Shown: positions 119 to 13,159, numbered from the stretch's first letter. The stretch is 24,851 nt of DNA from a virus (IMGVR_UViG_2565956714_000001:1-24851), one strand, 5' to 3'. Numbers and translations are program-made. Notes: generated by a model not told the origin, from the letters alone.

Positions 119-219
119 TGGTGACCGCGAAGGAATGCGGGTATGCCTTAATTTGTCCCGAGTCGAAGTATTAAATCAGCGTTATTTCCTTGGGGAATGT
201 CCATTCTGAGAACAAACAT

Positions 220-825
220 ATGAGCAAAGAATTTTACGCAAGGCTGGCAGCTATTCAGGAGAATCTGAACGCGCCAAAGAATCAATACAACTCATTCGGC
301 AAATATAAATACAGAAGCTGCGAAGACATTCTTGAGGGTGTTAAGCCGTTACTGAATGGCCTGTTTTTATCAATCAGCGATGAAGTTGTGTTGATTGGTG
401 ATCGGTATTACGTGAAAGCCACGGCAACTATTACTGATGGCGAAAACAGTCATACAGCAACCGCTCTTGCACGAGAGGAAGAAAGCAAGAAAGGAATGGA
501 TTCTGCACAAGTTACGGGAGCCACAAGCTCTTATGCACGCAAGTATTGCCTCAATGGTTTGTTCGGCATTGATGATGCGAAAGATGCAGATACAGACGAG
601 CATAAACATCAGCAGAACGCAGCAGCAAAGCAATCAAAACCATCACCTACACCTGAACAGGTTCTAAAAGCATTCACTGACGCAGCAATGCAGAAAAACA
701 CCGTGGAAGAGCTTAAACAGGCGTTCGCCAAAGCGTGGAAGATGCTCGAAGGCACACCGGAGCAGCACAAAGCGCAGGACATTTACAACATCAGACGAGA
801 CGAATTAGAAGGAGCGGCTGCTTAA
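220..825 (+). CDS. erf: Erf-family single-strand annealing (essential recombination function) protein
   Basis: The translation from MSKEFYARLAAIQENLNAPKNQYNSFGKYKYRSCEDILEGVKPLL matches P22 Erf as I recall it, including the SSYARKYCLNGLFGIDD segment. I chose the ATG at 220 rather than the ORF-track start at 190 because the remembered Erf N-terminus is MSKEFYARL. Confidence 0.92.
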   Translation: MSKEFYARLAAIQENLNAPKNQYNSFGKYKYRSCEDILEGVKPLLNGLFLSISDEVVLIGDRYYVKATATITDGENSHTATALAREEESKKGMDSAQVTGATSSYARKYCLNGLFGIDDAKDADTDEHKHQQNAAAKQSKPSPTPEQVLKAFTDAAMQKNTVEELKQAFAKAWKMLEGTPEQHKAQDIYNIRRDELEGAAA

Positions 826-2741: not shown

Positions 2742-3542
2742 ATGACCATCCACTTTCACGGCAGCCCAATATGGGGGGATGAGCATGCCCCTACAGATAT
2801 GCTGATTAAAGCCCTTTACCGTGATGGTGGGGCTTTTGTTTCATTTGCCAGACCAGAGCAGATGAAAAAGATTGCCATGTTCCCTTGTGATATACGCCTT
2901 GATAACGGTGCTTTTAGCGACTGGATGAAAGCATTAAAGAAAGGCACTCCGGTAGACTGGAGTAAGAGACGAGCAAAATTCTACGACTTTGTTGGGAAGT
3001 GGTTCAGCAGAATTGAATGGTTTCTTATACCTGACGTTATCGAAGGGACAGAGGCAGAAAACGACGAGCAGATTGAGTTGGTTCCTGATTGGCTAAAATC
3101 AAAAGCGGTTCCGGTCTGGCATACCGACGAATCAATTGAACGTCTTTTACGCCTTTCTAGCAAATTTGAATGGGTGGCGATTGGATACTGCGGACCACAC
3201 AGGCACATACGCTCTAAATGGTGGGAACAGAGAATGGATGAAGTTTTCACTGAGCTTTATATCAATCGTAATTTGAAAGTGAAAATTCATGGTCTTCGAA
3301 TGCTCGACGTGAGAGTTCTTGGTATGTATCCGTTCGCCAGTGCGGATTCTACTAATGTTGCTGTTAACGTACCGAAGACAGAGAAGCGATTTCCTGAGAT
3401 TACCGACAAACTGGCACGCACAGCTGTACTTCGCGCTGCTATTGAAAAGGTGCACCCGCCATCGATATCAGCATGGGTAGACAGAAAGATGAGAGAGCCG
3501 GCGCAAGCCGGTTTTTTATTTGAATTCACCGACGCCGCTTAA
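2742..3542 (+). CDS. hypothetical 266-aa protein; possible TGT-fold (tRNA-guanine transglycosylase / DpdA-like) enzyme
   Basis: Clean ORF bounded by terminators on both sides. Motifs RLDNGAFS, LIPDVIEG, AIGYCGP and FASADSTNV occur in the order and approximate spacing of TGT-family motifs LTDSGGYQ, AFDEC, LMGVGKP and DMFDCV (from memory). No Cys/His zinc site is present. The functional assignment is speculative; the CDS itself is well supported. Confidence 0.6.
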   Translation: MTIHFHGSPIWGDEHAPTDMLIKALYRDGGAFVSFARPEQMKKIAMFPCDIRLDNGAFSDWMKALKKGTPVDWSKRRAKFYDFVGKWFSRIEWFLIPDVIEGTEAENDEQIELVPDWLKSKAVPVWHTDESIERLLRLSSKFEWVAIGYCGPHRHIRSKWWEQRMDEVFTELYINRNLKVKIHGLRMLDVRVLGMYPFASADSTNVAVNVPKTEKRFPEITDKLARTAVLRAAIEKVHPPSISAWVDRKMREPAQAGFLFEFTDAA

Positions 3543-3824: not shown

Positions 3825-4025
3825 ATGCAACACGAACTACAACCTGATTCACTGGTTGATTTGAAATTCATCATGGCTGATACTGGCTTCGGTAAAACCT
3901 TCATCTACGACCGGATTAAGTCCGGCGACCTGCCAAAAGCCAAAGTTATCCACGGGCGAGCAAGATGGTTATATCGTGACCATTGTGAATTCAAAAATAA
4001 GCTCTTAAGCCGCGCCAATGGGTAA
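3825..4025 (+). CDS. torI: TorI-like excisionase / recombination directionality factor (AlpA/Xis-family winged helix)
   Basis: The 66-aa translation MQHELQPDSLVDLKFIMADTGFGKTFIYDRIKSGDLPKAKVIHGRARWLYRDHCEFKNKLLSRANG matches my recollection of E. coli KplE1 TorI. GGAG RBS 9 nt upstream. Confidence 0.85.
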   Translation: MQHELQPDSLVDLKFIMADTGFGKTFIYDRIKSGDLPKAKVIHGRARWLYRDHCEFKNKLLSRANG

Positions 4026-4086
4026 AATAGCGGGTAAAATATTTCTTACATCTAAAAAACATCATTCCAATCAATCCCCTGCCGAT

Positions 4087-4131
4087 GGTGAGGCTTTATA
4101 GAAAAATACCTCACCATTATTTTGTAATTTT
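4087..4131 (+). terminator. possible terminator downstream of torI
   Basis: GGTGAGG ... CCTCACC stem with a large 15-nt AT loop, followed by attattttgtaatttt. Confidence 0.35.
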
Positions 4132-4140
4132 CGCATAGAT

Positions 4141-4179
4141 AAAAGAAAATAAATCACGAATTGTTTAAATTTGTGATTT
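4141..4179 (-). terminator. probable rho-independent terminator of the tailspike gene
   Basis: On the minus strand: AAATCACAAATT-taaac-AATTCGTGATTT (one mismatch) followed by ATTTTCTTTT. Confidence 0.45.
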
Positions 4180-4226
4180 ATTACACGCAATAATTATCAT
4201 GCTTTATTAAACCCTCCAGCTAATCC

Positions 4227-6293
4227 TTATATACTCCTTGAAATTTCAAACCAAATACCACTCAGTCTTTTTAGTGTTATAATTGTGTTGCCTGATATTG
4301 ACGCTATATCTTTTTCTCCTCTTAACCTTATAAGCTTGTTATTATGAATTAACTTTGATCCTATAGACATTCTTACTTGTATTATTTGCCCATCAATTCC
4401 ATTAGAAAAGTAACTTACAACTTTATTGTCAAGGTATATGCTTGGCCCGACAAATGCACTAGATGTGCCTCCCGGAGCAAAATATTCAATAGATGGGTCC
4501 TCAAGAGCGGTAACGTTATCTATTTTATAGAAAGGAGTCCTTCCCCTAATGCTATAGTACTGTGAGTAATTAGCATTTTTTGCTGAAATATCTATGGCAG
4601 AAATTCCTGTCATTAAACTATCATCTTCAACTAAGTATAATATGTGTCTGAAATTACCAGCCTGATGGATTGTTTCTCCATATATATTTATATTACCAAG
4701 AACAACACCATTTAGCTGGCAAAGATAAATAGCACATGCTGAATCACCGTTAGGTGTATATACGTTTCCAGATATGGAATACTCAGTCGTGCTTCCATTA
4801 ATCATCTTGGTAACACTCCTTCTGGAACTGTATATTGCATTATCAGGTAATTTAAGCGTCTGTGATGATTCTATTCCTATACAAGCTACAGATGCTGTTA
4901 TTGTATTATTTTTTAATGAAACATATCGCGAGTTAAAGCAATGTACTCCGTATCTCCAGTCACCTAGTATCATGTTGCCTATTATGTCTATACTGTATGC
5001 ACCTTGTGCAAACTGGATAGCTGCATCATCAGATATGTAACTAGAAGTAGAGGCTGACTGTATATAGTTGTTTGATATCTGTATATATCTAGATTCTCCA
5101 AAAATAATTGCTGATGATTCTGCATTGATTAGCCTATTTCCCTCTATTTTTACACGCTCGCAACCAGTTCCAAGATTTATATTACGATGCGAACCTCCAA
5201 TTAGTATATTCCCTGTAAATTCAGCATTAAATAACCCGAAAGCTTGCACGTTGTGAGTTCCGTTGATAACGGTGTTGTTTGACACAGTTATGTACTGAAT
5301 GGTTTTGTGTTGCGAATTCCATTTTACACTTCCAGTTTCAGTGTCTATGTTGTTTTGTGCTACTAAATATATACCAGCAATACCAACTGTTCCTGCACCA
5401 CTATCAGGATCTATGGGCATCTCAATTGTATTTCCTTCTATGGTATCGTATAAGTTTAGTGATGTGATATCTGTTGTTCCAATACGTATACCATATCGTT
5501 CAGTTCCATCAACACCGAAACCATATACTCTGTTTCTTAGTATTTTGCACCTAGTTGTTGCGCTAAGAAGAATTCCTCCTCTGGCAACACCATTTGCATT
5601 AATGGAACAATCACTAATTTCAAGGTCTGTGTGACCGGAAGTACCTTGCGAAAACAAGCAGACACCACCCTGTGCTGTGACAATCAGGCTAAGATCACTT
5701 ATTTTTTTTATGCCAACAGGTATTTCTACCTGAGAAACGAGATATGTGCTTCCTTTTTTACCTCTTACCCAACGAATTTTCCCAGAAGAACAGTATTTCA
5801 TAGCAGACACTATAGATTCTGTATCATCATTAACCCCATCACCAACAGCGCCGAATTGTTCCGGTGTAACATACAATGATTGATCATACAAAGTTCCAAT
5901 TGGCTGGACGCCAACCATCCCAGAACCAAGTGAAGATGAAAGCTCATACTTAAATTGGTCTGGGTCGTACTTCAACACATTTGGGAAATAAAATTGCTGT
6001 GCACCATACGCATCATAAACAGCCATAGAATGGCCTTGCACTGTAACGAACTTGGCGATCTGTCCGTTATACACAGGATAACCGGCAGAGTTAATAACAA
6101 TTGGTTGTTCTACCTGAACATGTTTACCATCTTCTCGTTCCAGATATACCGGAATCTGGTTTTCAGGATTTACCGGGTCCGTGTCAATTTTACCGATATA
6201 AATTTTTCCATTGGCTACGGCTTTAAAAGAACGCGCCATAGTGAAGAGTTGCGAAGGCATGCTCACTACAACATTGGCTGTAATGTCTGTCAT
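4227..6293 (-). CDS. tailspike protein: P22 gp9-type N-terminal head-binding domain fused to a divergent right-handed beta-helix receptor-binding domain
   Basis: The N-terminus [50 protein letters not shown]...[14 protein letters not shown] matches the P22 gp9 head-binding domain from memory. The remaining ~570 aa are beta-helix-like (NNT/GN/IxG coil repeats) with no P22 similarity, and the DNA there is visibly AT-rich. GGAG RBS upstream on the minus strand. Confidence 0.9.
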
Positions 6294-6425
6294 TTAATTT
6301 GCTCCAGATACAAGGAATCACCGCAGCGTGGCTACGGTTGGTGTTTGTTGCATACCGAAATGGTACGATTGTTGATTTGTACAGTAGGTTTTACGATGCC
6401 ATTCCACCCATTTGGTGAGGCATTG

Positions 6426-6683
6426 ATGATGTACAGCAAATACGATGAGGCGCAGTTCCACTTGAGGCTTACGCACGAGTTGCACGCTAAGATTAAGCAA
6501 CGTGCAAAAATGAATAACAGGTCTATCAATTCCGAAATTGTGGCTACGATGGAAGAATCACTCTCCAAACCATCACCTGTAAGCGGGTATCGTGATGAAG
6601 AAGAGAGGCTGGCCTCATTAATCTCGGAACGAGTAAAAGAAGTTGTGGCTGATATCCTTAGAAAAGAAAAAACCCGCAATTAA
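6426..6683 (+). CDS. mnt: Mnt-like ribbon-helix-helix repressor
   Basis: MMYSKYDEAQFHLRLTHELHAKIKQRAKMNNRSINSEIVATMEESLSKPSPVSGYRDEEERLA parallels P22 Mnt as recalled (RHH N-terminus and SKPSPVTGYRNDAERLA C-terminal region). GGTGAGG RBS precedes the ATG. The ORF-track frame from 5955 upstream is antisense to the tailspike and is not counted. Confidence 0.85.
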   Translation: MMYSKYDEAQFHLRLTHELHAKIKQRAKMNNRSINSEIVATMEESLSKPSPVSGYRDEEERLASLISERVKEVVADILRKEKTRN

Positions 6684-6697
6684 GCGGGTTTAGTTGG
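6669..6697. terminator. bidirectional terminator shared by convergent mnt and the arc-ant operon
   Basis: AAACCCGC-aattaa-GCGGGTTT hairpin. The minus-strand reading is followed by TTTTTTC (strong); the plus-strand reading by a weaker TTTAGTTGGTT. Confidence 0.65.
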
Positions 6698-6919
6698 TTA
6701 GTTATCAAAAAGTCCGTACGTTTCTTCTTCTTCAGGTGTAAGGGGAAGAATCTCTACTCTATCTATAGATACCTTTTCAATGTACCCATGAGGTCTACTT
6801 AAAATTAAAGCTCTCTCATGCCACAGAACTCCAAGAATGTGATACCTTCCAGCATCTCCTTTTACCCTGGCTCTTCCTTTGATTCTTGGCGGCATAATGC
6901 CATATCTTTTCTTTGCCAT
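6698..6919 (-). CDS. hypothetical 73-aa protein, last gene of the arc-ant operon
   Basis: Start overlaps the upstream stop by 1 nt (translational coupling). Translation MAKKRYGIMPPRIKGRARVKGDAGRYHILGVLWHERALILSRPHGYIEKVSIDRVEILPLTPEEEETYGLFDN. No family recognised. Confidence 0.55.
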   Translation of the reverse strand: MAKKRYGIMPPRIKGRARVKGDAGRYHILGVLWHERALILSRPHGYIEKVSIDRVEILPLTPEEEETYGLFDN

Positions 6920-7644
6920 TATGCAACATTGCTCCCATGAATCAGGTGTTGTAGTGCTTTAACACCCTCCGCATTGTAGCGGAATGCTTCCACCTGTTTG
7001 CTTGAATGCGCAGATTTATCCAAGAAGAACTTCCCGTACTGCTCAGTTTTGAGGTTGTTTGCGTTAGCAATGCGACCAATCTTGTTTGCCGTTACTCCAA
7101 GCTGCTCTGCAACCTCCCCTGCTGAGTAGTAATGCTCTTCTATTGCTGGAAGAGGTATTGCATTAAAACCAACTATCGGGTTGATTATGCTTGCTGCCGC
7201 AGTCTGCTTTGCTTCCGGCGCAAGATTTGGCATCAAATCTAACAGATTGGTAACAGCTTCAACCGTCATTTTCAATGTTCGTGCCTGGCGATACTCAACA
7301 AGTCCACTCGACGATTTACCGCTTTTAATGTGCGCTTCTTGCATACTTTCAAGTTTGTCTACAAGTGTTCGGCGAACTGCTTTAGATTCGCGAGCAGCAA
7401 CACGAAGCGCCTGCTTGATAGTCATGGAGATAACATCAATGTCAGCCCCGTTTTTCCGACCTACACTTTTTGTGTAGGTCTCGCCCTCCAATTCATCCTC
7501 AATTTTCTCGATGAATTTGTTGTTACGTACTGATGGCTCTCCACATAACTTGCGAGCTTCATTAACCATCATCAGAAGACTTTGGCTGTCAATGGTTTTA
7601 TCCGTGACAACGGATCCGATGTTTGCTACATTCTTCAAAGTCAT
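6919..7644 (-). CDS. antirepressor-like protein (Rha/KilA-C/ANT-type C-terminal region)
   Basis: Start at MTLKNVANIG with an AAGGAA RBS. The C-terminal HYYSAGEVAEQLGVTANKIGRIANANNLK resembles the DNA-binding segment of ANT/KilA-C antirepressor domains. Co-oriented with the Bro-N gene upstream. Confidence 0.6.
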   Translation of the reverse strand: MTLKNVANIGSVVTDKTIDSQSLLMMVNEARKLCGEPSVRNNKFIEKIEDELEGETYTKSVGRKNGADIDVISMTIKQALRVAARESKAVRRTLVDKLESMQEAHIKSGKSSSGLVEYRQARTLKMTVEAVTNLLDLMPNLAPEAKQTAAASIINPIVGFNAIPLPAIEEHYYSAGEVAEQLGVTANKIGRIANANNLKTEQYGKFFLDKSAHSSKQVEAFRYNAEGVKALQHLIHGSNVA

Positions 7645-7732
7645 TAGGCATTCCTTATGTGGTAGTAAGGGTGTGACATAGGCCGCCAGCAGCACACTGG
7701 CGGTTTTCTTTTTGCGCCGTCCGGCGCACCAA

Positions 7733-8359
7733 TCAATGAATCCATTCCTCGCCGCGCAGTTTTGTCAGCATTGGCTGAGCGTTCTTTACGACAAAATTGT
7801 TGGTATCAAGATTCTTCATTTCACGAAGAAGTGATTTCTTGGTTTCTTCTGACATATAGCGAGTCTCATATGCAATATCGTAAATTCTTCCTGAAAGCTC
7901 AGAACCAATTTGCTTCATTCCTGGGTAGATGTGTTTGCACATTTGTTGACTCTTCTCCATCCACAATTGTAAGTAGCAGAGATTAACCAGTTCTTCGTCA
8001 GTAAACTGTTTTGCAATCGGTGAGCATTCTGCCTGCCGATCCAAAATATCCAGCACCCAGCGGCGGAACTCTTTGGCTACCGGAGTGCGAGCAAACATCG
8101 CGATTAGGTGGGCACCGCGTAGTGAGAAAACTCGCACTTTTTTGCGATAATTTCCTGAGGTACTCACTTCGAGTACCTGAGTCATTCCGGCGCTAAACTC
8201 ATCGCTATACTTGTTATAAATCATTGTTACTGCACGGCTATTTGCATATTTAAGTGCAGATGCAATATTAGATGATGTAAACCAAACACCATGCATATCA
8301 CGGGTGGGCACCAACTCAACTCCGTGGAAGTTGTAATCTGATTTTGCTACAATATTCAT
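7733..8359 (-). CDS. ant: antirepressor, Bro-N domain protein
   Basis: Start at MNIVAKSDY (AAGGAAAC RBS); the ORF-track start at 8464 has no RBS. FHGVELVPTRDMHGVWFTSSNIASALKYANSRAV is Bro-N-like. It lies downstream of the arc-like gene as in P22 immI. Confidence 0.75.
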   Translation of the reverse strand: MNIVAKSDYNFHGVELVPTRDMHGVWFTSSNIASALKYANSRAVTMIYNKYSDEFSAGMTQVLEVSTSGNYRKKVRVFSLRGAHLIAMFARTPVAKEFRRWVLDILDRQAECSPIAKQFTDEELVNLCYLQLWMEKSQQMCKHIYPGMKQIGSELSGRIYDIAYETRYMSEETKKSLLREMKNLDTNNFVVKNAQPMLTKLRGEEWIH

Positions 8360-8437
8360 GTTAGTTTCCTTGCATACGGTTACTGACATAGAGGCCCGGT
8401 TTGTGTTCGCGCACTGCCGGGCTTCACTATTTTTATT
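8360..8437 (+). ncRNA. candidate sar-like antisense RNA covering the ant RBS
   Basis: On the plus strand, an extended -10 element TGcTACAAT (8345-8353) sits just inside the ant 5' end. A directional hairpin GCCCGG...CCGGGC (8394-8422) followed by TTCACTATTTTTATT lies in the arc-ant spacer. Positional analogy to P22 sar. Confidence 0.3.
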
Positions 8438-8606
8438 GGATGACAACATCGCCCTTTGCCTCAAGTTTCATCAATAACTCCATTCGATAAGCTATCTCTG
8501 CCTGAATTGACCTATGGCATCTTTTTGCTGATTCGCGGATATGTGAATCAACCTTTTCTGTAAAACGAACCTGACGCGGCTTGATGGAAGATATCTTTTC
8601 AGTCAT
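8433..8606 (-). CDS. arc: Arc-like ribbon-helix-helix repressor (57 aa)
   Basis: Not in the ORF track (under 60 aa). Translated by hand: MTEKISSIKPRQVRFTEKVDSHIRESAKRCHRSIQAEIAYRMELLMKLEAKGDVVIQ. GGAG RBS 7 nt upstream. It is the first gene of the antirepressor operon, as in P22. Confidence 0.7.
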   Translation of the reverse strand: MTEKISSIKPRQVRFTEKVDSHIRESAKRCHRSIQAEIAYRMELLMKLEAKGDVVIQ

Positions 8607-8655
8607 TATGCACTCCTGTTTTTGAAAAACTCATAATCTCACTTTTTGTAGTTTG

Positions 8656-8684
8656 ATTATTCACTCACACTCAGTATGAGTCAA
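8656..8684 (-). promoter_or_regulatory. Pant-like sigma70 promoter with an embedded palindrome (candidate Arc operator)
   Basis: Minus strand reads TTGACT-17 nt-AATAAT upstream of arc. The inverted repeat ACTCA-gta-TGAGT (8669-8681) overlaps the -35 and spacer. Confidence 0.4.
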
Positions 8685-8705
8685 TGAATTTTTTATGGTG
8701 AACTA

Positions 8706-9347
8706 ATGAATTTTGACGATCAATTCCCATCAAGAGTATCTCTGGCAAGACAGTCCAGGGGTATGACGCAGGCGCAGTTGTCAAAATTAGCTGGTGTTGT
8801 TCAACGTCAAATAGCTGCATACGAGGGTGGTGAGGCTAAACCACGGCTTCGTGTATTGCAGGCATTAGCCAACGCATTAGGCACTACGGCTGAGTGGTTA
8901 GCTCTGGGTGAAGGTCAGGGGCCTGGAACAAAAAACGTCATGCCTGACGTTCTGGTAAAGCAAATACCAATCCTCAAACTAGATGAAGTTATGCATTACC
9001 TAAACACAGGTGAACATTCATCGTCTAGATTTCATCCGGCAATATACAATGTTGGTGACTCTGCATTTGCATTGACTATTGAAGGTGAAGCTATGACTAC
9101 AAGTTCAGGTATTAGCTTTCCCAGAGGATCAGTTGTCACGTTCAGCCCTCTAGTAAAAGCTAAAAGCAAAGATTATGTAATAGCATCATTGGATAAAGAG
9201 CAAATATTGAGCTTCAAGCAGGTTTACATTGGTGAAATAGAGACAAACTTAGTATCCCTAAACCCAATGTATCCTAATATTCTTGTTAGAAATGAAGATG
9301 TTAGTATTTTGGCAACCGCAGTTTACCTTGAAATCCCGTTGCTTTGA
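8706..9347 (+). CDS. lambda-CI-like regulator: XRE-type HTH plus S24 (LexA-like) C-terminal domain with catalytic Ser replaced by Ala
   Basis: N-terminal HTH MTQAQLSKLAGVVQRQIAAYEGGEAKPRLRVLQALANALGTTAEWLALGE. The C-terminal VGDSAFALTIEGEAMTTSSGISFPRGSVVTF aligns to lambda CI [33 protein letters not shown], with GCT (Ala, 9090-9092) where CI has the nucleophile Ser. The Lys of the dyad is retained (LSFKQVY vs FTFKKLI). No Ala-Gly cleavage motif is seen in the linker. Confidence 0.8.
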   Translation: MNFDDQFPSRVSLARQSRGMTQAQLSKLAGVVQRQIAAYEGGEAKPRLRVLQALANALGTTAEWLALGEGQGPGTKNVMPDVLVKQIPILKLDEVMHYLNTGEHSSSRFHPAIYNVGDSAFALTIEGEAMTTSSGISFPRGSVVTFSPLVKAKSKDYVIASLDKEQILSFKQVYIGEIETNLVSLNPMYPNILVRNEDVSILATAVYLEIPLL

Positions 9348-9411
9348 TATCCTTTAGGAAGCGACACATTATCATCCGGTGTTCTGCTCAAAACTAAGGA
9401 GTGGCTACTCA

Positions 9412-10050
9412 ATGAAAAAAATAGATATATATAGCGATACATCAGCCTATGTCATAGGCTCATTGGGTTTTTTAATTTTTTTTGTTTGGCAGTACCAGTC
9501 ACTATCTCCAGGATGGAGATTTTTGGGGATGTCTTTGATATCACTTGGTGCAGGAATAGCAACGCAGGTGTTGATGTATCTCTTTAATGGATGGATCTCA
9601 AAAAGAGTTGAGAAAAAAAGAGCTACTTCAATATGTAGAAGCCTAGCTATTCCAGAAGACTCTACAGATCAGGATGATATTGCAAAATGTTGGCGGTATA
9701 TGATTGCAAGATACTCAAATGAGTTACTGGCAAACAGACTGTCCGACTTAATCGGGATCGTAGTTACCTCTGTTGGAACAATCATCAGTATAGGGATATC
9801 AATTTGGTATGTCGGGATGATTGTCTATTTTGTTTGGAATAGAGACTTCAATGAACCTTCCCTTCTTTTTATACCTTTATTTTTCAGGGTATTAGCATTC
9901 ATATGTGAGTTATTGCTCTCTTTTTTCTGCAATGTTTTGTTCAACAGATACCCAGGTGAAGCAAGAAAGTTTAATAAAAACTATGATGAGTTAAGGAGAA
10001 CAGATCCTTTTCTATCAAGCAAAGAGTTCCGCGATTCCATTCGCAATTAA
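9412..10050 (+). CDS. inner-membrane protein with four predicted TM helices; possible SieA-like superinfection exclusion protein
   Basis: AGGAG RBS before the ATG at 9412. Four hydrophobic segments are visible in the translation. The DNA is AT-rich. It occupies the slot where P22 has sieA; the function is positional inference only. Confidence 0.55.
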   Translation: MKKIDIYSDTSAYVIGSLGFLIFFVWQYQSLSPGWRFLGMSLISLGAGIATQVLMYLFNGWISKRVEKKRATSICRSLAIPEDSTDQDDIAKCWRYMIARYSNELLANRLSDLIGIVVTSVGTIISIGISIWYVGMIVYFVWNRDFNEPSLLFIPLFFRVLAFICELLLSFFCNVLFNRYPGEARKFNKNYDELRRTDPFLSSKEFRDSIRN

Positions 10051-10097
10051 CAACATCCATGACATCAACCCTTAGCGATCAGTTGCATCATTGGCAA

Positions 10098-10100: not shown

Positions 10101-10165
10101 TGATCTTACCCAGCAATAGTGGACACGCGGCTAAGTGAGTAAACTCTCAGTCAGAGGTGACTCAC

Positions 10166-10465
10166 ATGACAAAAACAGTATCAACCAGTAAAAAACCCCG
10201 TAAACAGCATTCGCCTGAATTTCGCAGTGAAGCCCTGAAGCTTGCTGAACGCATCGGTGTTACTGCCGCAGCCCGTGAACTCAGCCTGTATGAATCACAG
10301 CTCTACAACTGGCGCAGTAAACAGCAAAATCAGCAGACGTCTTCTGAACGTGAACTGGAGATGTCTACCGAGATTGCACGTCTCAAACGCCAGCTGGCAG
10401 AACGGGATGAAGAGCTGGCTATCCTCCAAAAGGCCGCGACATACTTCGCGAAGCGCCTGAAATGA
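10166..10465 (+). CDS. insE: IS3 transposase OrfA (InsE, HTH)
   Basis: [54 protein letters not shown]... matches the recalled IS3 InsE. Confidence 0.92.
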
Positions 10466-11328
10466 AGTATGTCTTTATTGAAAAACATCAGGCTGAGTTC
10501 AGCATCAAAGCAATGTGCCGCGTGCTCCGGGTGGCCCGCAGCGGCTGGTATACGTGGTGTCAGCGGCGGACAAGGATAAGCACGCGTCAGCAGTTCCGCC
10601 AACACTGCGACAGCGTTGTCCTCGCGGCTTTTACCCGGTCAAAACAGCGTTACGGTGCCCCACGCCTGACGGATGAACTGCGTGCTCAGGGTTACCCCTT
10701 TAACGTAAAAACCGTGGCGGCAAGCCTGCGCCGTCAGGGACTGAGGGCAAAGGCCTCCCGGAAGTTCAGCCCGGTCAGCTACCGCGCACACGGCCTGCCT
10801 GTGTCAGAAAATCTGTTGGAGCAGGATTTTTACGCCAGTGGCCCGAACCAGAAGTGGGCAGGAGACATCACGTACTTACGTACAGATGAAGGCTGGCTGT
10901 ATCTGGCAGTGGTCATTGACCTGTGGTCACGTGCCGTTATTGGCTGGTCAATGTCGCCACGCATGACGGCGCAACTGGCCTGCGATGCCCTGCAGATGGC
11001 GCTGTGGCGGCGTAAGAGGCCCCGGAACGTTATCGTTCACACGGACCGTGGAGGCCAGTACTGTTCAGCAGATTATCAGGCGCAACTGAAGCGGCATAAT
11101 CTGCGTGGAAGTATGAGCGCAAAAGGTTGCTGCTACGATAATGCCTGCGTGGAAAGCTTCTTTCATTCGCTGAAAGTGGAATGTATCCATGGAGAACACT
11201 TTATCAGCCGGGAAATAATGCGGGCAACGGTGTTTAATTATATCGAATGTGATTACAATCGGTGGCGGCGGCACAGTTGGTGTGGCGGCCTCAGTCCGGA
11301 ACAATTTGAAAACAAGAACCTCGCTTAG
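10462..11328 (+). CDS. insF: IS3 transposase OrfB (InsF, DDE catalytic domain); expressed as an OrfAB fusion by -1 frameshift
   Basis: [36 protein letters not shown]... with DDE-type motifs ([17 protein letters not shown]). It overlaps insE in the -1 frame. Confidence 0.92.
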
Positions 11329-11341
11329 GCCTGTGTCCATA

Positions 11342-13159
11342 TTACGTGGGTAGGATCAGTATTGGTCTGATGGCATTTGCGGCGTTATTCAGCGCTCTTT
11401 CATAGGCTGGCGTTCCAGCTTTAGTGTTTGCCAGACGTAAGAGCGCATTCCTTGCTGCTTTGGACTCATACAAGCGCATCATTGCACCGAAACCAGCCTC
11501 AAGCCCCATTGATACGCCAAGAGTCGCAGTTGCGCCAATCGTCCTTATCCTGTTGGCTTGCGATTGCCCCGTCTGAGTTACTACATTTGCGGTGTCTGAC
11601 CTTGCTGTTTGCTGTAGAACTTCATTAAGAGCATCAAGTTCTTTCATGTGCTTTCCAGAAAAAATAGTGTTGTAAATTTCACCTCCTGACTGAGATTTCA
11701 GCTTATTAACTTCAGTGATGAACTTGGCTGGAGAGTCACCGGCCTTTTCCGCTATTTTGCTGACGTAAGCTGCACGCATAGCATCTTTCCCTTTATCATC
11801 CAGTGCGCTCCAGATTCGTTTCACGTCAGATGGTTTTCTGCTTAATACAACGGTATTTATAAGTTCAGGACTGGCTTCACTGCTTGCCTTGTTGAGCTTG
11901 TTGGCAATGTTTTTATTAAGCACCTTATTATAAACGTTTGCATAATCGGAATTTGCTTTAAGGTATTTTGCTGCGTCTGATGCACCGAGGTTTTTAGCAA
12001 CTGCGTTACGAAGGTCTTTTGACATTGCATTCTCTACCATATTGGTAGCTGCTTTTGCCTGGTTGGGGAAGACCATAGCATCTCCCTGAACATTAGATCT
12101 AAATGCTGTTCTGTGCTGACGCAAGAGATCAAACGTAACATCCAAATCAGTTGCAGGGTTTGCTAATTCTTCACGTAGGTTACGCAAGGATGTAAGCAGG
12201 CTTTGATTGGCTGAAGTCCCAAGCCGTTCCTGTCTTGCGATCGCTGTATTCAGAGCATTCATGGTATTTGTGGTATCAACTGCGGCATTACCCATTTTAT
12301 TGGTGACGTCATTGATAACAGCGCCAGCAGCATCCTTCCGCCCCCTTAACGTGGTGGTCAGAGATTTCACCACATCATCAGGGTTGTACTCACCAAAACG
12401 GTCAAAATAATTGCTTACCAGCTTACTACGCGTTGCATATTGCTCCGCTCGCTTTGAGCCTGTCCCGAGCAAAGCCCCCTCGGCATCCTGAGTAAGGCCG
12501 CGAGTGAAAGCATTTTTCGGCGGGATAACATCAGATGTCATTGGTGTCACGCCCATCGATTCTGATGTGGCAATTTTCTTCGCCACTTCTGGCGCAATAT
12601 CACCTTTTATAGCCGTTATTCCACGCCCTATTCCCTTTGCTGCTGCGGAAAGAACACCCTGAGCGGCAAGGTTAACTCCGGCATTTTTAGCTGCATTTTG
12701 TGCGAAATCGCCTTTCTGATTTGCGGCCTCTGCCAGTGATCCAATAGCCATGCTTCCTGCCGTTCCAACTCCTGGAACTAAATACCCGCCAATTGTTTCT
12801 CCAGCTTGCGCATAAGGGTCTGTTGGTCGATCTACTGGACGATAGACATCGTCCAAAACCTTGGGGCCACCAAGCCCCTGGCTGATTGCATTAATCAGAC
12901 TTGCGCCACCCTGCAATACGTCAAATGGTATATTTACCAGACCACGACCAGCCTGCTCTGCAATTTGCCCTGCACTTTGACCACCAGTGAGCAAGTCAGT
13001 AGCTTTTTCTACCAGAGATTGTTCTTCTGGCTGCGATTGGTTTTGAGTGGATTGATCACCAGAAGACAGCATCTGAGCAATGCGACGTGCTCCCTCAGTA
13101 TCACCAGCAGCATCAGCATTCCTTAACGCCGTCATCAATTGTTCACGACTATAGGCCAT
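11342..13159 (-). CDS. ejection (pilot/internal) protein, P22 gp16-like; C-terminus altered by the IS3 insertion
   Basis: 605-aa ORF at the gene 16 position, co-oriented and coupled to the gp20-like gene. Its last codons and stop (11342-11358) lie inside the IS3 right end. Confidence 0.8.
11359..11361. repeat. IS3 target-site duplication, right copy (GTA)
   Basis: GTA immediately after the IS3 right end, identical to 10098-10100. Confidence 0.7.

Follow-up and report, generated by a model that had tools for sequence, protein, structure and literature searches.

The immI region of phage P22 is the textbook case of layered control, combining two repressors with an antisense RNA. The locus analyzed here raises the question of whether such a region has been rearranged, because an mnt-like gene converges on an operon of arc-like and antirepressor genes. 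The window, that is, the whole stretch of DNA that was analyzed, comprises 24,851 nucleotides of a viral genome (IMGVR_UViG_2565956714_000001). The original prediction read the locus as an immI-type region with an unusual gene order. All of its open reading frames, strands, and coordinates are real, and its assignment to the immI type is supported. The genes concerned are as follows.

4227–6293, minus strand: tailspike, homologue of P22 gene 9 (Pfam Head_binding, E = 3e-64)
6426–6683, plus strand: mnt homologue (Pfam Arc, E = 1e-14), N-terminal ribbon-helix-helix (RHH) and C-terminal tail of the tetramerization type
6698–6919, minus strand: orf73, 73 aa (PHROG 4977, unknown function, E = 1e-53)
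6919–7644, minus strand: ant2, 241 aa (PHROG 1726 'anti-repressor', E = 2e-100)
7733–8359, minus strand: ant1, Bro-N and P22_AR_C (Pfam; PHROG 245 'anti-repressor Ant')
8433–8606, minus strand: RHH57, 57-aa ribbon-helix-helix protein, first gene of the operon (hhalign against the Arc/Mnt profile)
8706–9347, plus strand: CI-like repressor (Pfam HTH_3, E = 9e-13; Peptidase_S24, E = 1e-12)
9379–10050, plus strand: SieA-like membrane protein (PHROG 7745 'superinfection exclusion SieA-like', E = 7.5e-21)
10102–11357, plus strand: IS3 copy inserted at the 3' end of the gene 16 homologue (breakpoints by comparison with L022)

We consider it probable that the DNA separating the gene 16 homologue from the tailspike gene is the variable "ant moron", or second immunity region, of a P22-like (Lederbergvirus) E. 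coli prophage of the JEP4/HS-1 type, and that it contains two independent regulatory units. A variable, non-morphogenetic gene set is flanked by the gene 16 homologue (11342–13159) and the tailspike gene (4227–6293), with homologues of genes 16, 7, and 20 on one side and the tailspike on the other. The same gene 16 homologue is annotated as P22-gp16 family in L002. The 5' leader of the tailspike gene (approximately 6294–6343) is a conserved 'boundary' sequence, which is also found upstream of P22 gene 9 and aligns with the P22 ant-9 intergenic region. The IS3 copy, whose open reading frames we take to match IS3 InsE/InsF, is outside the regulatory system. The SieA-like gene lies 3' of the CI-like gene in the same orientation.

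The gene order of the window recurs in phage JEP4 (MT740315; 97% identity to the region), in the E. coli HS prophage (98.8% identity), in at least 28 complete E. coli genomes, and in approximately 25 IMG/VR contigs; the regulatory part is 97–100% identical between the window and the HS-1 type/JEP4. The HS version was drawn as the "HS-1" ant moron by Villafane et al. 2008 (PMC2629481). By the standard set in the original prediction, the order is not novel, being the usual arrangement among the closest relatives (JEP4, E. coli HS, and others). No complete E. coli genome matched the window over its whole length at a coverage of 80% or more. In the accessible part of that paper, the genes are shown in a diagram only, HS-1 has ant genes and no arc, and it is concluded from the missing arc that control must differ from that of P22. 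The same part contains no description of a CI-like repressor, of a relationship between RHH57 and Arc, of a sar homologue, or of a second antisense unit. Within the accessible literature on this variant, on the "ant moron", and on sar homologues, we found only that study and a paper on phage L. The region is an immI-type variant of an already known system, and the only fresh points concern the probable regulation of the variant. What appears to be undescribed is a CI-like repressor lacking both the catalytic Ser and Ala-Gly, an "arc" that is only a distant relative of Arc/Mnt, a sar homologue missed by Rfam (8360–8433), a predicted second sar-like unit over the ant2 start, and an orphan Mnt with its own operator-like palindrome and strong purifying selection.

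The CI-like gene is divergent from the 57-aa open reading frame. As originally predicted, it is this gene and not mnt that is the divergent partner of the arc-like gene: the pairing did not vary in 35 of 35 related loci, each time with an Ant-type gene downstream. Tail regions of siphoviruses contain the ant cassette as well, with either a CI-like/RHH pair or an Mnt-like/Arc pair as regulators. The CI-like protein aligns to the C-terminal domain of lambda CI and is 26% identical to the canonical C2 of JEP4. The nucleophile motif of the S24 family (G-[DN]-S-M) is lost through replacement of the residue corresponding to lambda CI Ser149 by Ala (IEGEAMT), while Lys192 is kept; most relatives retain the Ser residue. 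The Ala-Gly (or Cys-Gly) cleavage site in the linker is absent as well (LKLDEVMHYL versus VSAGCWMEA in JEP4 C2). The repressor is therefore predicted to lack self-cleavage and, with nucleophile and cleavage site both missing, to be insensitive to RecA. The control elements of the operon that faces it are listed below.

8656–8684, minus strand: promoter of the RHH57-ant1-ant2-orf73 operon, TTGACT-17-AATAAT (10 of 12 positions, the best match in the region)
8669–8681, no strand: palindrome ACTCA-GTA-TGAGT, located in the spacer and −35 region of the operon promoter; candidate operator for the CI-like protein
8625–8647, no strand: imperfect inverted repeat AAAAACTCAT-AAT-CTCACTTTTT, candidate RHH57 operator (inverted-repeat scan)
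8324–8433, plus strand: sar homologue, sar-1 (alignment to P22 and eps34 sar)
7604–7716, plus strand: predicted second antisense unit, sar-2 (promoter and terminator scans)
6670–6691, minus strand: intrinsic terminator of the antirepressor operon (terminator scan), its hairpin overlapping the mnt stop codon

The operon promoter is conserved in related loci; all promoters given here are consensus matches only, and the region had 3 promoter-like sites versus 5.1 in shuffled sequence. At this promoter, neither a LexA box nor another external signal site was found. Where identity of the CI-like protein falls to only 46%, the loci carry a different palindrome, ATATGAATAATTCATAT, at the position of 8669–8681, and their RHH57 is still approximately 88% identical. 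The block ATGAGTTTT inside the 8625–8647 repeat, which spans approximately +2 to +25 of the operon transcript, is conserved wherever RHH57 is. These assignments of proteins to repeats come from co-variation among only three intergenic types.

RHH57 was called arc in the original prediction. The open reading frame and a remote RHH kinship stand, since hhalign against the Arc/Mnt profile gave a probability of 88.7% (E = 2.6e-6), with AmrZ as the best PDB match and an AmrZ-like pattern. It is, however, neither a member of Pfam Arc, which it did not match, nor an Arc orthologue, and BLAST gave no similarity to P22 Arc. Position and fold make RHH57 an analogue of Arc. Its family is tight, with every member at least 81% identical.

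The sar-1 promoter, GTGGAA-18-TGcTACAAT (8324–8353), lies inside the first codons of ant1, and the predicted RNA (approximately 8360–8433) is antisense to the ant1 ribosome-binding site. It folds into the same two hairpins as P22 sar (z = −5.7), with compensatory changes in seven terminator pairs, and its promoter, 5' hairpin, and terminator are homologous to those of P22-type sar, with covariation. The Rfam model of sar (RF00262; gathering threshold 43 bits) found no match at E ≤ 1 in 5900–9400, while P22 itself scores 97.8 bits; the only Rfam match in the region was a sub-threshold symR-like one (E = 0.63) at the sar-1 site. The sar-2 promoter, GTGACA-17-TGcTACATT (7604–7632), lies likewise inside the first codons of ant2, and the predicted RNA (approximately 7639–7716), which ends in a terminator hairpin (7680–7706) with a T-run, is complementary to the ant2 ribosome-binding site and start codon. 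This layout is kept in relatives from E. coli, Salmonella, Klebsiella, Serratia, and Morganella, with compensatory stem changes. The compensatory pairs number 2 in one comparison, the fold of the whole RNA has a z of −1.8, and the conservation could partly reflect coding constraint.

At the distal end of the operon, the start of orf73 overlaps the ant2 stop as TAATG, coupling its translation to that of ant2; orf73 is found 3' of ant2 in most related loci. The terminator beyond it coincides in place with one annotated in eps34. It had been proposed to be bidirectional. It is a clear intrinsic terminator for the minus-strand operon, whereas the mnt strand has only TTTAGTT after the hairpin.

The ORF map confirmed that mnt is divergent from the tailspike gene and convergent with the ant operon. 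We call it an orphan because arc-ant is absent between mnt and the tailspike gene. Its start is likely the second ATG (6429), which is the start conserved in relatives. The protein shares 48% identity with P22 Mnt across 86% of its length, a stretch that takes in the C-terminal SKPSPV.GYR..ERLA region, and 96% with the 'regulatory protein mnt' of JEP4. Two elements lie upstream of it.

6351–6367, no strand: candidate Mnt operator, CATACCGAAATGGTACG, with a TACC-N5-GGTA core (aligned to the position of P22 Omnt)
6369–6397, plus strand: predicted Pmnt, TTGTTG-17-TACGAT (position homologous to P22 Pmnt, TTGAGA-17-TATCAT)

The candidate operator is directly upstream of the Pmnt −35 hexamer, and its palindrome co-varies with the β-strand residues of Mnt across P22/eps34, Gally/ST160, and the clade of the window. 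The predicted Pmnt scores below the threshold of the consensus promoter scan; all mnt relatives that were compared share the TTGnnn-17-TAnnAT pattern. The P22 Mnt operator, whose half-sites the original prediction proposed to look for, is absent from the window at up to 3 mismatches, as is P22 Oarc, and 8607–8705 contains no Omnt-like site. Another TACC-N5-GGTA inside gene 16 has unrelated flanks and was treated as a chance occurrence. A LexA-like match with one mismatch in the Pmnt spacer (6369–6384) is within chance and is not conserved in Sf101 or P22.

How mnt came to stand beside the tailspike gene can be judged from the relatives. According to the original prediction, mnt was relocated from beside arc to the site between ant and the tailspike, where it would control a tailspike promoter or act at a distance on the ant operon. 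The divergent arrangement with an operator-like palindrome in between would fit such a role, and, according to PMC2629481, the P22 ant region is believed to affect how much transcription reaches gene 9. However, L018, L028, and L030 carry, in this order, the CI-like gene, RHH-ant1-ant2-orf73, mnt, a P22-type arc-ant, and the tailspike gene, and in L028 the segment running from orf73 into the 3' half of mnt, as well as the tailspike leader, matches the window at 99% identity. It follows that mnt is in its canonical place, that arc-ant is simply absent, and that nothing has moved. The same orphan mnt follows mnt2/Arc-family, ant1, ant2, and orf73 genes in L008, and it is common for mnt to face the tailspike directly (VSe13, Sf101, Gally, ST160, and L/ST64T, from our comparison and from PMC2629481 and PMC8022706). 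Distant action is opposed by the search for a second copy of the palindrome near the ant promoter, which found none. Toward the tailspike, no promoter reached the scan threshold; by eye there are only degenerate hexamers, and the sites corresponding to the Pant hexamers of P22 are degenerate too. We regard this model as a whole as quite improbable. That degeneracy, together with the missing arc, sar, and ant, would suit a decaying, functionless remnant of a lost immI region, a possibility raised for the mnt-like gene of phage L (PMC8022706). Such decay is very unlikely given a dN/dS of 0.02 at a dS of 1.2 between the window (E. coli) and Salmonella phage VSe13, an intact gene in at least 64 E. 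coli genomes, and a 57-nt block from the operator to the mnt ribosome-binding site that is almost invariant against VSe13 while the adjacent spacer has diverged. The evidence points to a functional Mnt that most likely regulates its own expression; the analyses gave no support for a role of the orphan Mnt beyond that.

The original prediction saw the antirepressor function as split over two open reading frames, and such a split is not supported. The antirepressor genes invite two other readings. One is that ant1 and ant2, which are adjacent, co-oriented, and both labeled antirepressor, are one gene broken by a frameshift or sequencing error. We find this scarcely credible, because the 208-aa ant1 product already has Bro-N (residues 23–105) and P22_AR_C (residues 117–184) in one polypeptide, the genes are separated by an 88-nt gap with a conserved hairpin and have a ribosome-binding site each, ant2 occurs without ant1 in phiKp_30 and ant1 without ant2 in SPN3UB, and the two-gene layout is found in five genera. 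The C-terminal domain of ant1 is 29% identical to that of P22 Ant (E = 1e-9); by domain homology, ant1 is a complete antirepressor-type protein. The ant2 product, which has approximately 1970 full-length homologues, belongs to a separate widespread family and is not an ant1 fragment. It has no Pfam match, and PDB sequence and profile searches gave nothing meaningful. Its predicted model contains a winged-helix domain of the DNA-binding type, and ant2 may be a regulator rather than an antirepressor, a label that comes from PHROG only. This resemblance to a DNA binder also lends itself to the other reading, in which unit 1 is cargo acting on other elements, for example as trans-acting antirepressors that induce or counteract resident prophages, or through a regulatory or defence role of ant2/orf73. 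The cassette moves among unrelated phage types, in some beside Fic/Phd-type cargo, L028-type phages have it in addition to a full P22-type immI, and Gifsy phages have trans-acting antirepressors (Lemire 2011, cited in PMC7067206). The promoter nevertheless lacks an external signal site such as a LexA box, and the layout of repressor, small RHH, and sar copies that of P22 immI, a system that acts on the C2 of the phage itself. We consider the cargo reading unlikely.

The preferred reading of an ant moron with two units could work as follows. In unit 1 (6698–10050), the CI-like and SieA-like genes on the plus strand would presumably be expressed from the prophage. The strong sigma-70 promoter at 8656–8684, divergent from the CI-like gene, would drive RHH57, ant1, ant2, and orf73. 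The CI-like protein may take the role of Mnt, keeping the operon shut in the lysogen through the palindrome in the promoter spacer, and RHH57 that of Arc, switching the operon off once the burst upon infection is over. The sar-1 RNA, supported by homology and covariation, and the predicted sar-2 would pair with the ribosome-binding sites of ant1 and ant2 and block translation as P22 sar does. Ant1, and possibly Ant2, would inactivate a C2-type prophage repressor. The putative target repressor (immC) is outside the window. Unit 2 (6351–6683) would consist of a canonically placed mnt together with an operator and a Pmnt of its own, the downstream arc-sar-ant being absent. We think this explanation as a whole likely to hold. 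A more far-reaching version is possible, although we lean against it: a distinct, widely mobile immI-type circuit with a catalytically dead CI/LexA-fold repressor for Mnt, a very conserved remote RHH for Arc, and two cis-antisense RNAs (a divergent sar and an undescribed second one), each gating one of two genes, whose antisense −10 boxes impose N-(I/V)-A on the N-termini of unrelated proteins, together with an orphan Mnt clade of new operator specificity selected for a non-ant role, such as modulating transcription into the tailspike gene.

The general understanding of such regions is unchanged by these findings. They suggest that the control layers of P22 immI are exchangeable modules in this variant: a CI-fold protein that lacks protease activity can serve as the maintenance repressor, a remote RHH protein can act as the autoregulator, and the antisense layer has been kept and, it appears, doubled to cover a second gene. 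Mnt DNA-binding strands and operators of three specificities form a natural set that would be useful for studies of RHH recognition. Strong selection on orphan mnt genes beside tailspikes also bears on the question posed for phage L, namely another function or a remnant.

Among known systems, HS-1 and JEP4 have essentially the same DNA and gene order as the window; HS-1 also has an IS3 inserted in the region, but at a different site. P1 likewise has an antisense RNA that controls two Ant products. The LexA-controlled antirepressors of Gifsy (PMC7067206), Tum of 186, and c4-ant1/ant2 of P1 immI resemble the window, by description, in that a dedicated repressor holds the antirepressor off; they differ in that the window has no LexA box and its dedicated repressor is a CI-fold protein without the catalytic Ser. 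The phages with mnt only (L/ST64T/ST104, ST160/SE1, Sf101, VSe13, and Gally) share an mnt divergent from the tailspike with no arc-ant, convergent cargo 3' of mnt, and a terminator overlapping the end of mnt, whereas the cargo in the window is a full regulated antirepressor operon. With its DNA-binding strand QFHLRL and the palindrome TACC-N5-GGTA, the Mnt of the window is of a specificity type unlike those of P22 and ST160.

Compared with P22 immI, the ant operon of the window has a CI-like HTH/S24 protein and not Mnt as its divergent partner, so that the arrangement of mnt divergent from arc-ant with Omnt at the Pant start is missing. The first gene is an RHH remote from Arc and not an Arc-family gene with an Arc operator between −35 and −10, and the Omnt and Oarc sequences are absent. 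The N-terminus of Ant is Bro-N in the window and P22_AR_N in P22; ant2, orf73, and a second predicted antisense RNA are added, and arc-sar-ant is missing between mnt and the tailspike. The likeness is nevertheless extensive. Both regions occupy the same slot between gene 16 and gene 9, both have a true Mnt homologue with an operator and Pmnt at homologous positions, and in both a small RHH gene comes first in the ant operon, a two-hairpin sar is antisense to the ant ribosome-binding site, the C-terminal domain of Ant is homologous, and a terminator precedes the tailspike leader.

The window comes from a P22-like (Lederbergvirus) prophage whose late genes are encoded on the minus strand; gp10-, gp7- and gp20-type proteins were recognized with Pfam, and the tailspike carries the P22 head-binding domain. 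The positions of the open reading frames in the original prediction between the gene 16 homologue and the tailspike, which flank the antirepressor interval, all proved exact. It had also proposed a bidirectional terminator; the hairpin at 6670-6691 is a clear terminator for the minus-strand operon and not for the mnt strand.

Features of the window
190-825: erf, early-left gene
1232-1528: abc2, early-left gene
1810-2535: LprI-like gene, early-left gene
3825-4025: TorI/AlpA-type excisionase, early-left gene
4227-6293: tailspike, one flank of the antirepressor interval
6426-6683, plus strand: Mnt homologue (Pfam Arc, E 1e-14; 48% identity to P22 Mnt)
6698-6919, minus strand: 73-aa ORF (orf73), TAATG-coupled to the 241-aa gene
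6919-7644, minus strand: 241-aa ORF (ant2), PHROG 1726 'anti-repressor', no Pfam match
7604-7632, plus strand: predicted promoter of sar-2, GTGACA-17-TGcTACATT
7733-8359, minus strand: Bro-N and P22_AR_C protein (ant1)
8433-8606, minus strand: 57-aa ORF (RHH57)
8706-9347, plus strand: HTH_3 and Peptidase_S24 protein (CI-like)
9379-10050, plus strand: SieA-like membrane protein (PHROG 7745)
about 10102-11357, plus strand: IS3 copy
11342-13159: gene 16 homologue, other flank of the antirepressor interval

This arrangement is already documented. Phage JEP4 shares both gene content and gene order, with 97% identity over 90% of the length of the 2.7-kb region, at least 80% of which is present in 40 complete E. 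coli genomes. The CI-like/RHH57 segment was found in 28 of 5426 complete genomes (the E. coli HS copy is 100% identical), and the region in about 25 IMG/VR contigs, one of them at 99.7% across 6200-10060. The gene 16-to-tailspike interval was described as the 'ant moron', with ten types among sixteen genomes, and the E. coli HS prophage was drawn as HS-1, IS3 included (Villafane et al. 2008, PMC2629481). HS-1 is credited there with putative antirepressor genes and apparently no arc, so that its control must differ from that of P22 (PMC2629481). Because the closest relatives (JEP4, HS and others) share the order, and the HS-1 version was drawn in 2008, the gene order is common rather than novel, an outcome for which the original prediction had itself allowed.

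In the window, IS3 (10102-11357) has inserted at the extreme 3' end of the gene 16 homologue: the match to an uninterrupted related locus (L022) ends at 11358, and the gene 16 frame continues to 11342 within the IS3 end; the last few gene 16 codons are therefore IS-derived. In E. coli HS, this moron has independently acquired an IS3, which lies within ant2 instead. At the other side, the early-left genes directly adjoin the 3' end of the tailspike (3825-4226), with no integrase or att site between them, and homology to other prophages ends near 4084. This junction suggests an int-att deletion, or a vegetative-order genome without int.

The proposal that mnt had moved to a place beside the tailspike did not hold. 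Three IMG/VR prophages (L018, L028 and L030) have the order CI-like / RHH57-ant1-ant2-orf73 / mnt / P22-type arc / P22-type ant / tailspike, and thus carry arc and ant between this same mnt position and the tailspike. Identity between L028 and the window is 99% from orf73 across the terminator into the 3' half of mnt; the homology ends inside mnt and returns at 92% in the tailspike leader. The intervening part of L028 encodes an N-terminal Mnt domain of P22 type and holds Omnt, Oarc and Pant of P22 type, followed by arc and ant. Judged from this break and return, the difference is an exchange of an mnt N-terminus with its operator and the arc-sar-ant cassette for another mnt N-terminus and another operator only. 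An mnt facing the tailspike with convergent cargo at its 3' side is common (VSe13, Sf101, Gally, ST160, Brookers), and the canonical mnt of eps34 shares its 3' end with a convergent gene and a terminator. In L, ST64T and ST104, mnt likewise faces the tailspike directly (PMC2629481, PMC8022706). The Mnt of L028 (5927-6175; IMGVR_UViG_2751185969_000015) is itself a chimera, with a P22-type DNA-binding N-terminal half adjoining a P22-type operator and a C-terminal half identical to the window Mnt; the recombination joint lies within mnt, at the domain boundary.

When the window was aligned with P22, CATACCGAAATGGTACG at 6351-6367 was found to occupy the position of P22 Omnt, directly followed by a Pmnt-like TTGTTG-17-TACGAT. 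Across relatives, the palindrome varies together with the Mnt beta-strand.

Mnt beta-strands and the accompanying palindromes
P22, eps34: PHFNFRMP; GGTCCACCGTGGACC
Gally, ST160: PQFNLRLP; AGACCAC-N-GTGGTCT
Window, JEP4, VSe13, Sf101, HS: AQFHLRLT; ATACC-N5-GGTAC

A comparison of mnt in the window and in Salmonella phage VSe13 gives a dN/dS of 0.02 at a dS of 1.2, and the 57-nt block running from palindrome to ribosome-binding site holds one difference, next to a diverged spacer. Judged by such sequence comparisons, the orphan mnt, which lacks arc-ant between itself and the tailspike, is functional. Autoregulation is its best-supported role, because the candidate palindrome has no second copy near the ant promoter, the P22 Mnt and Arc operators were not found in the window, and a promoter scan gave no credible promoter reading into the tailspike. 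In every phage compared that lacks arc-ant, the sites corresponding to the Pant hexamers are degenerate. An effect of Mnt on tailspike transcription, which the original prediction had raised, is possible but unsupported. The Pmnt spacer contains TTGTTGATTTGTACAG (6369-6384), which differs at one position from the LexA-box core CTGT-N8-ACAG; such near-matches are as numerous across the window as chance predicts, and this one is absent from Sf101 and P22. A second TACC-N5-GGTA, TACCATATTGGTA, within the gene 16 coding sequence (12035-12047), has flanks unlike the candidate operator, is conserved only together with the gene 16 allele and is probably due to chance.

The suspected split of the antirepressor function over two ORFs is not supported; ant1 and ant2 are separate genes. 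Both Bro-N and P22_AR_C are present in ant1, whose C-terminus shares 29% identity with the P22 Ant C-terminus (E 1e-9). The ant2 protein showed no relationship to P22 Ant on comparison and belongs to a separate family lacking a Pfam domain, with about 1970 homologues of equal length. Each gene occurs without the other: in phiKp_30, ant2 adjoins mnt and ant1 is absent, and SPN3UB has ant1 and lacks ant2. The cassette also occurs in siphoviruses of Salmonella (SPN3UB), Morganella, Klebsiella and Serratia, where tail genes flank it on one side and the tape-measure gene on the other, with either a CI-like/small-protein pair or an Mnt-like/Arc pair as regulators. In Morganella and Klebsiella siphoviruses (L090, 839-1327; L092, 4383-5122), it adjoins Fic-domain and Phd/YefM-type genes, which suggests that this tail-region slot collects toxin-antitoxin or defence-type cargo.

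Plus-strand antisense RNAs are predicted over the starts of ant1 (sar-1) and ant2 (sar-2). The Rfam sar model has no match in the window (97.8 bits for P22), and the RHH57-ant1 spacer aligns with the sar of P22 and eps34. The extended -10 of sar-1, TGCTACAAT against TGCTATACT, lies within the first ant codons; an anti-Shine-Dalgarno sequence is located in the 5' hairpin, and a GC-rich terminator precedes a T-run. The fold computed for this predicted RNA (8360-8433) resembles that of P22 sar (z of -5.7, against -5.6 for P22), with compensatory changes in seven terminator pairs among 17 aligned sequences. The predicted sar-2 has the same layout, complementary to the ribosome-binding site and ATG of ant2, with a hairpin at 7680-7706 and a T-run on the plus strand only. 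Relatives from five genera keep this layout and show some compensatory changes; two pairs covary among eight aligned sequences, and the fold z-score is -1.8. The evidence for sar-2 is thus thinner than that for sar-1, and a second sar-like RNA over the ant2 start is probable. The antisense -10 boxes (TGCTACAAT and TGCTACATT) are the complement of N-(I/V)-A codons (8345-8359 and 7624-7644 in the window; about 3472-3500 in the related locus L010), found near the N-termini of three unrelated proteins: ant1 (MNIVAK), ant2 (MTLKNVAN) and SPN3UB gp22 (..AVNVAP). The N-terminus of P22 Ant, MNSIAI, has a similar N-S-I-A. The opposite-strand promoter seems to constrain these N-termini.

The CI-like/RHH57 pair is divergent in all 35 loci compared. 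In each of them an Ant-type gene, of either the Bro-N or the P22 Ant-like kind, comes next, and often ant2 and orf73 after it. The operon promoter, TTGACT-17-AATAAT (8684-8656), is the best sigma-70 match of the region, and its spacer contains the palindrome ACTCA-GTA-TGAGT (8669-8681). Loci whose CI-like protein has only 46% identity carry another palindrome at this place, with RHH57 still about 88% identical; the ATGAGTTTT block further downstream is conserved in all intergenic types. Because the palindrome changes with the CI-like type and the block stays constant, we infer that the palindrome is the candidate site of CI-like and the 8625-8647 repeat that of RHH57. The designation of RHH57 as 'arc' stands as a remote relationship: there is no Pfam Arc match or BLAST similarity to P22 Arc, but its profile aligned with that of Arc/Mnt by hhalign over the strand and both helices (probability 88.7%, E 2.6e-6), and the best PDB match is the Arc-like AmrZ. 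The family appears unusually tight: all 30 clusters found, which come from Escherichia, Salmonella, Klebsiella, Serratia, Hafnia and Yersinia, are at least 81% identical, and the CI-like partner falls to 41-46%, a tightness to which the limited sensitivity of the word-indexed search may contribute.

The CI-like protein aligns with the C-terminal domain of lambda CI, with Lys192 kept and Ser149 replaced by Ala (GEAM); the Ser is kept in most of its relatives. The JEP4 immC repressor, 26% identical to it, is canonical (VSAG, GDSM, FKK). As the CI-like protein lacks Ser149 and an Ala-Gly at the cleavage position, and the operon promoter has no LexA box, it seems to be a non-inducible maintenance repressor. 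Novelty may lie in the mechanistic detail, each step of which we infer from sequence and comparison: an immI variant whose CI-fold repressor is catalytically dead, whose Arc analogue is remote and whose sar is divergent, together with a probable second sar-like RNA and an orphan Mnt that is under selection and of new specificity. In P22, the role of maintenance repressor belongs to Mnt, whereas in the window it would fall to the CI-like protein.
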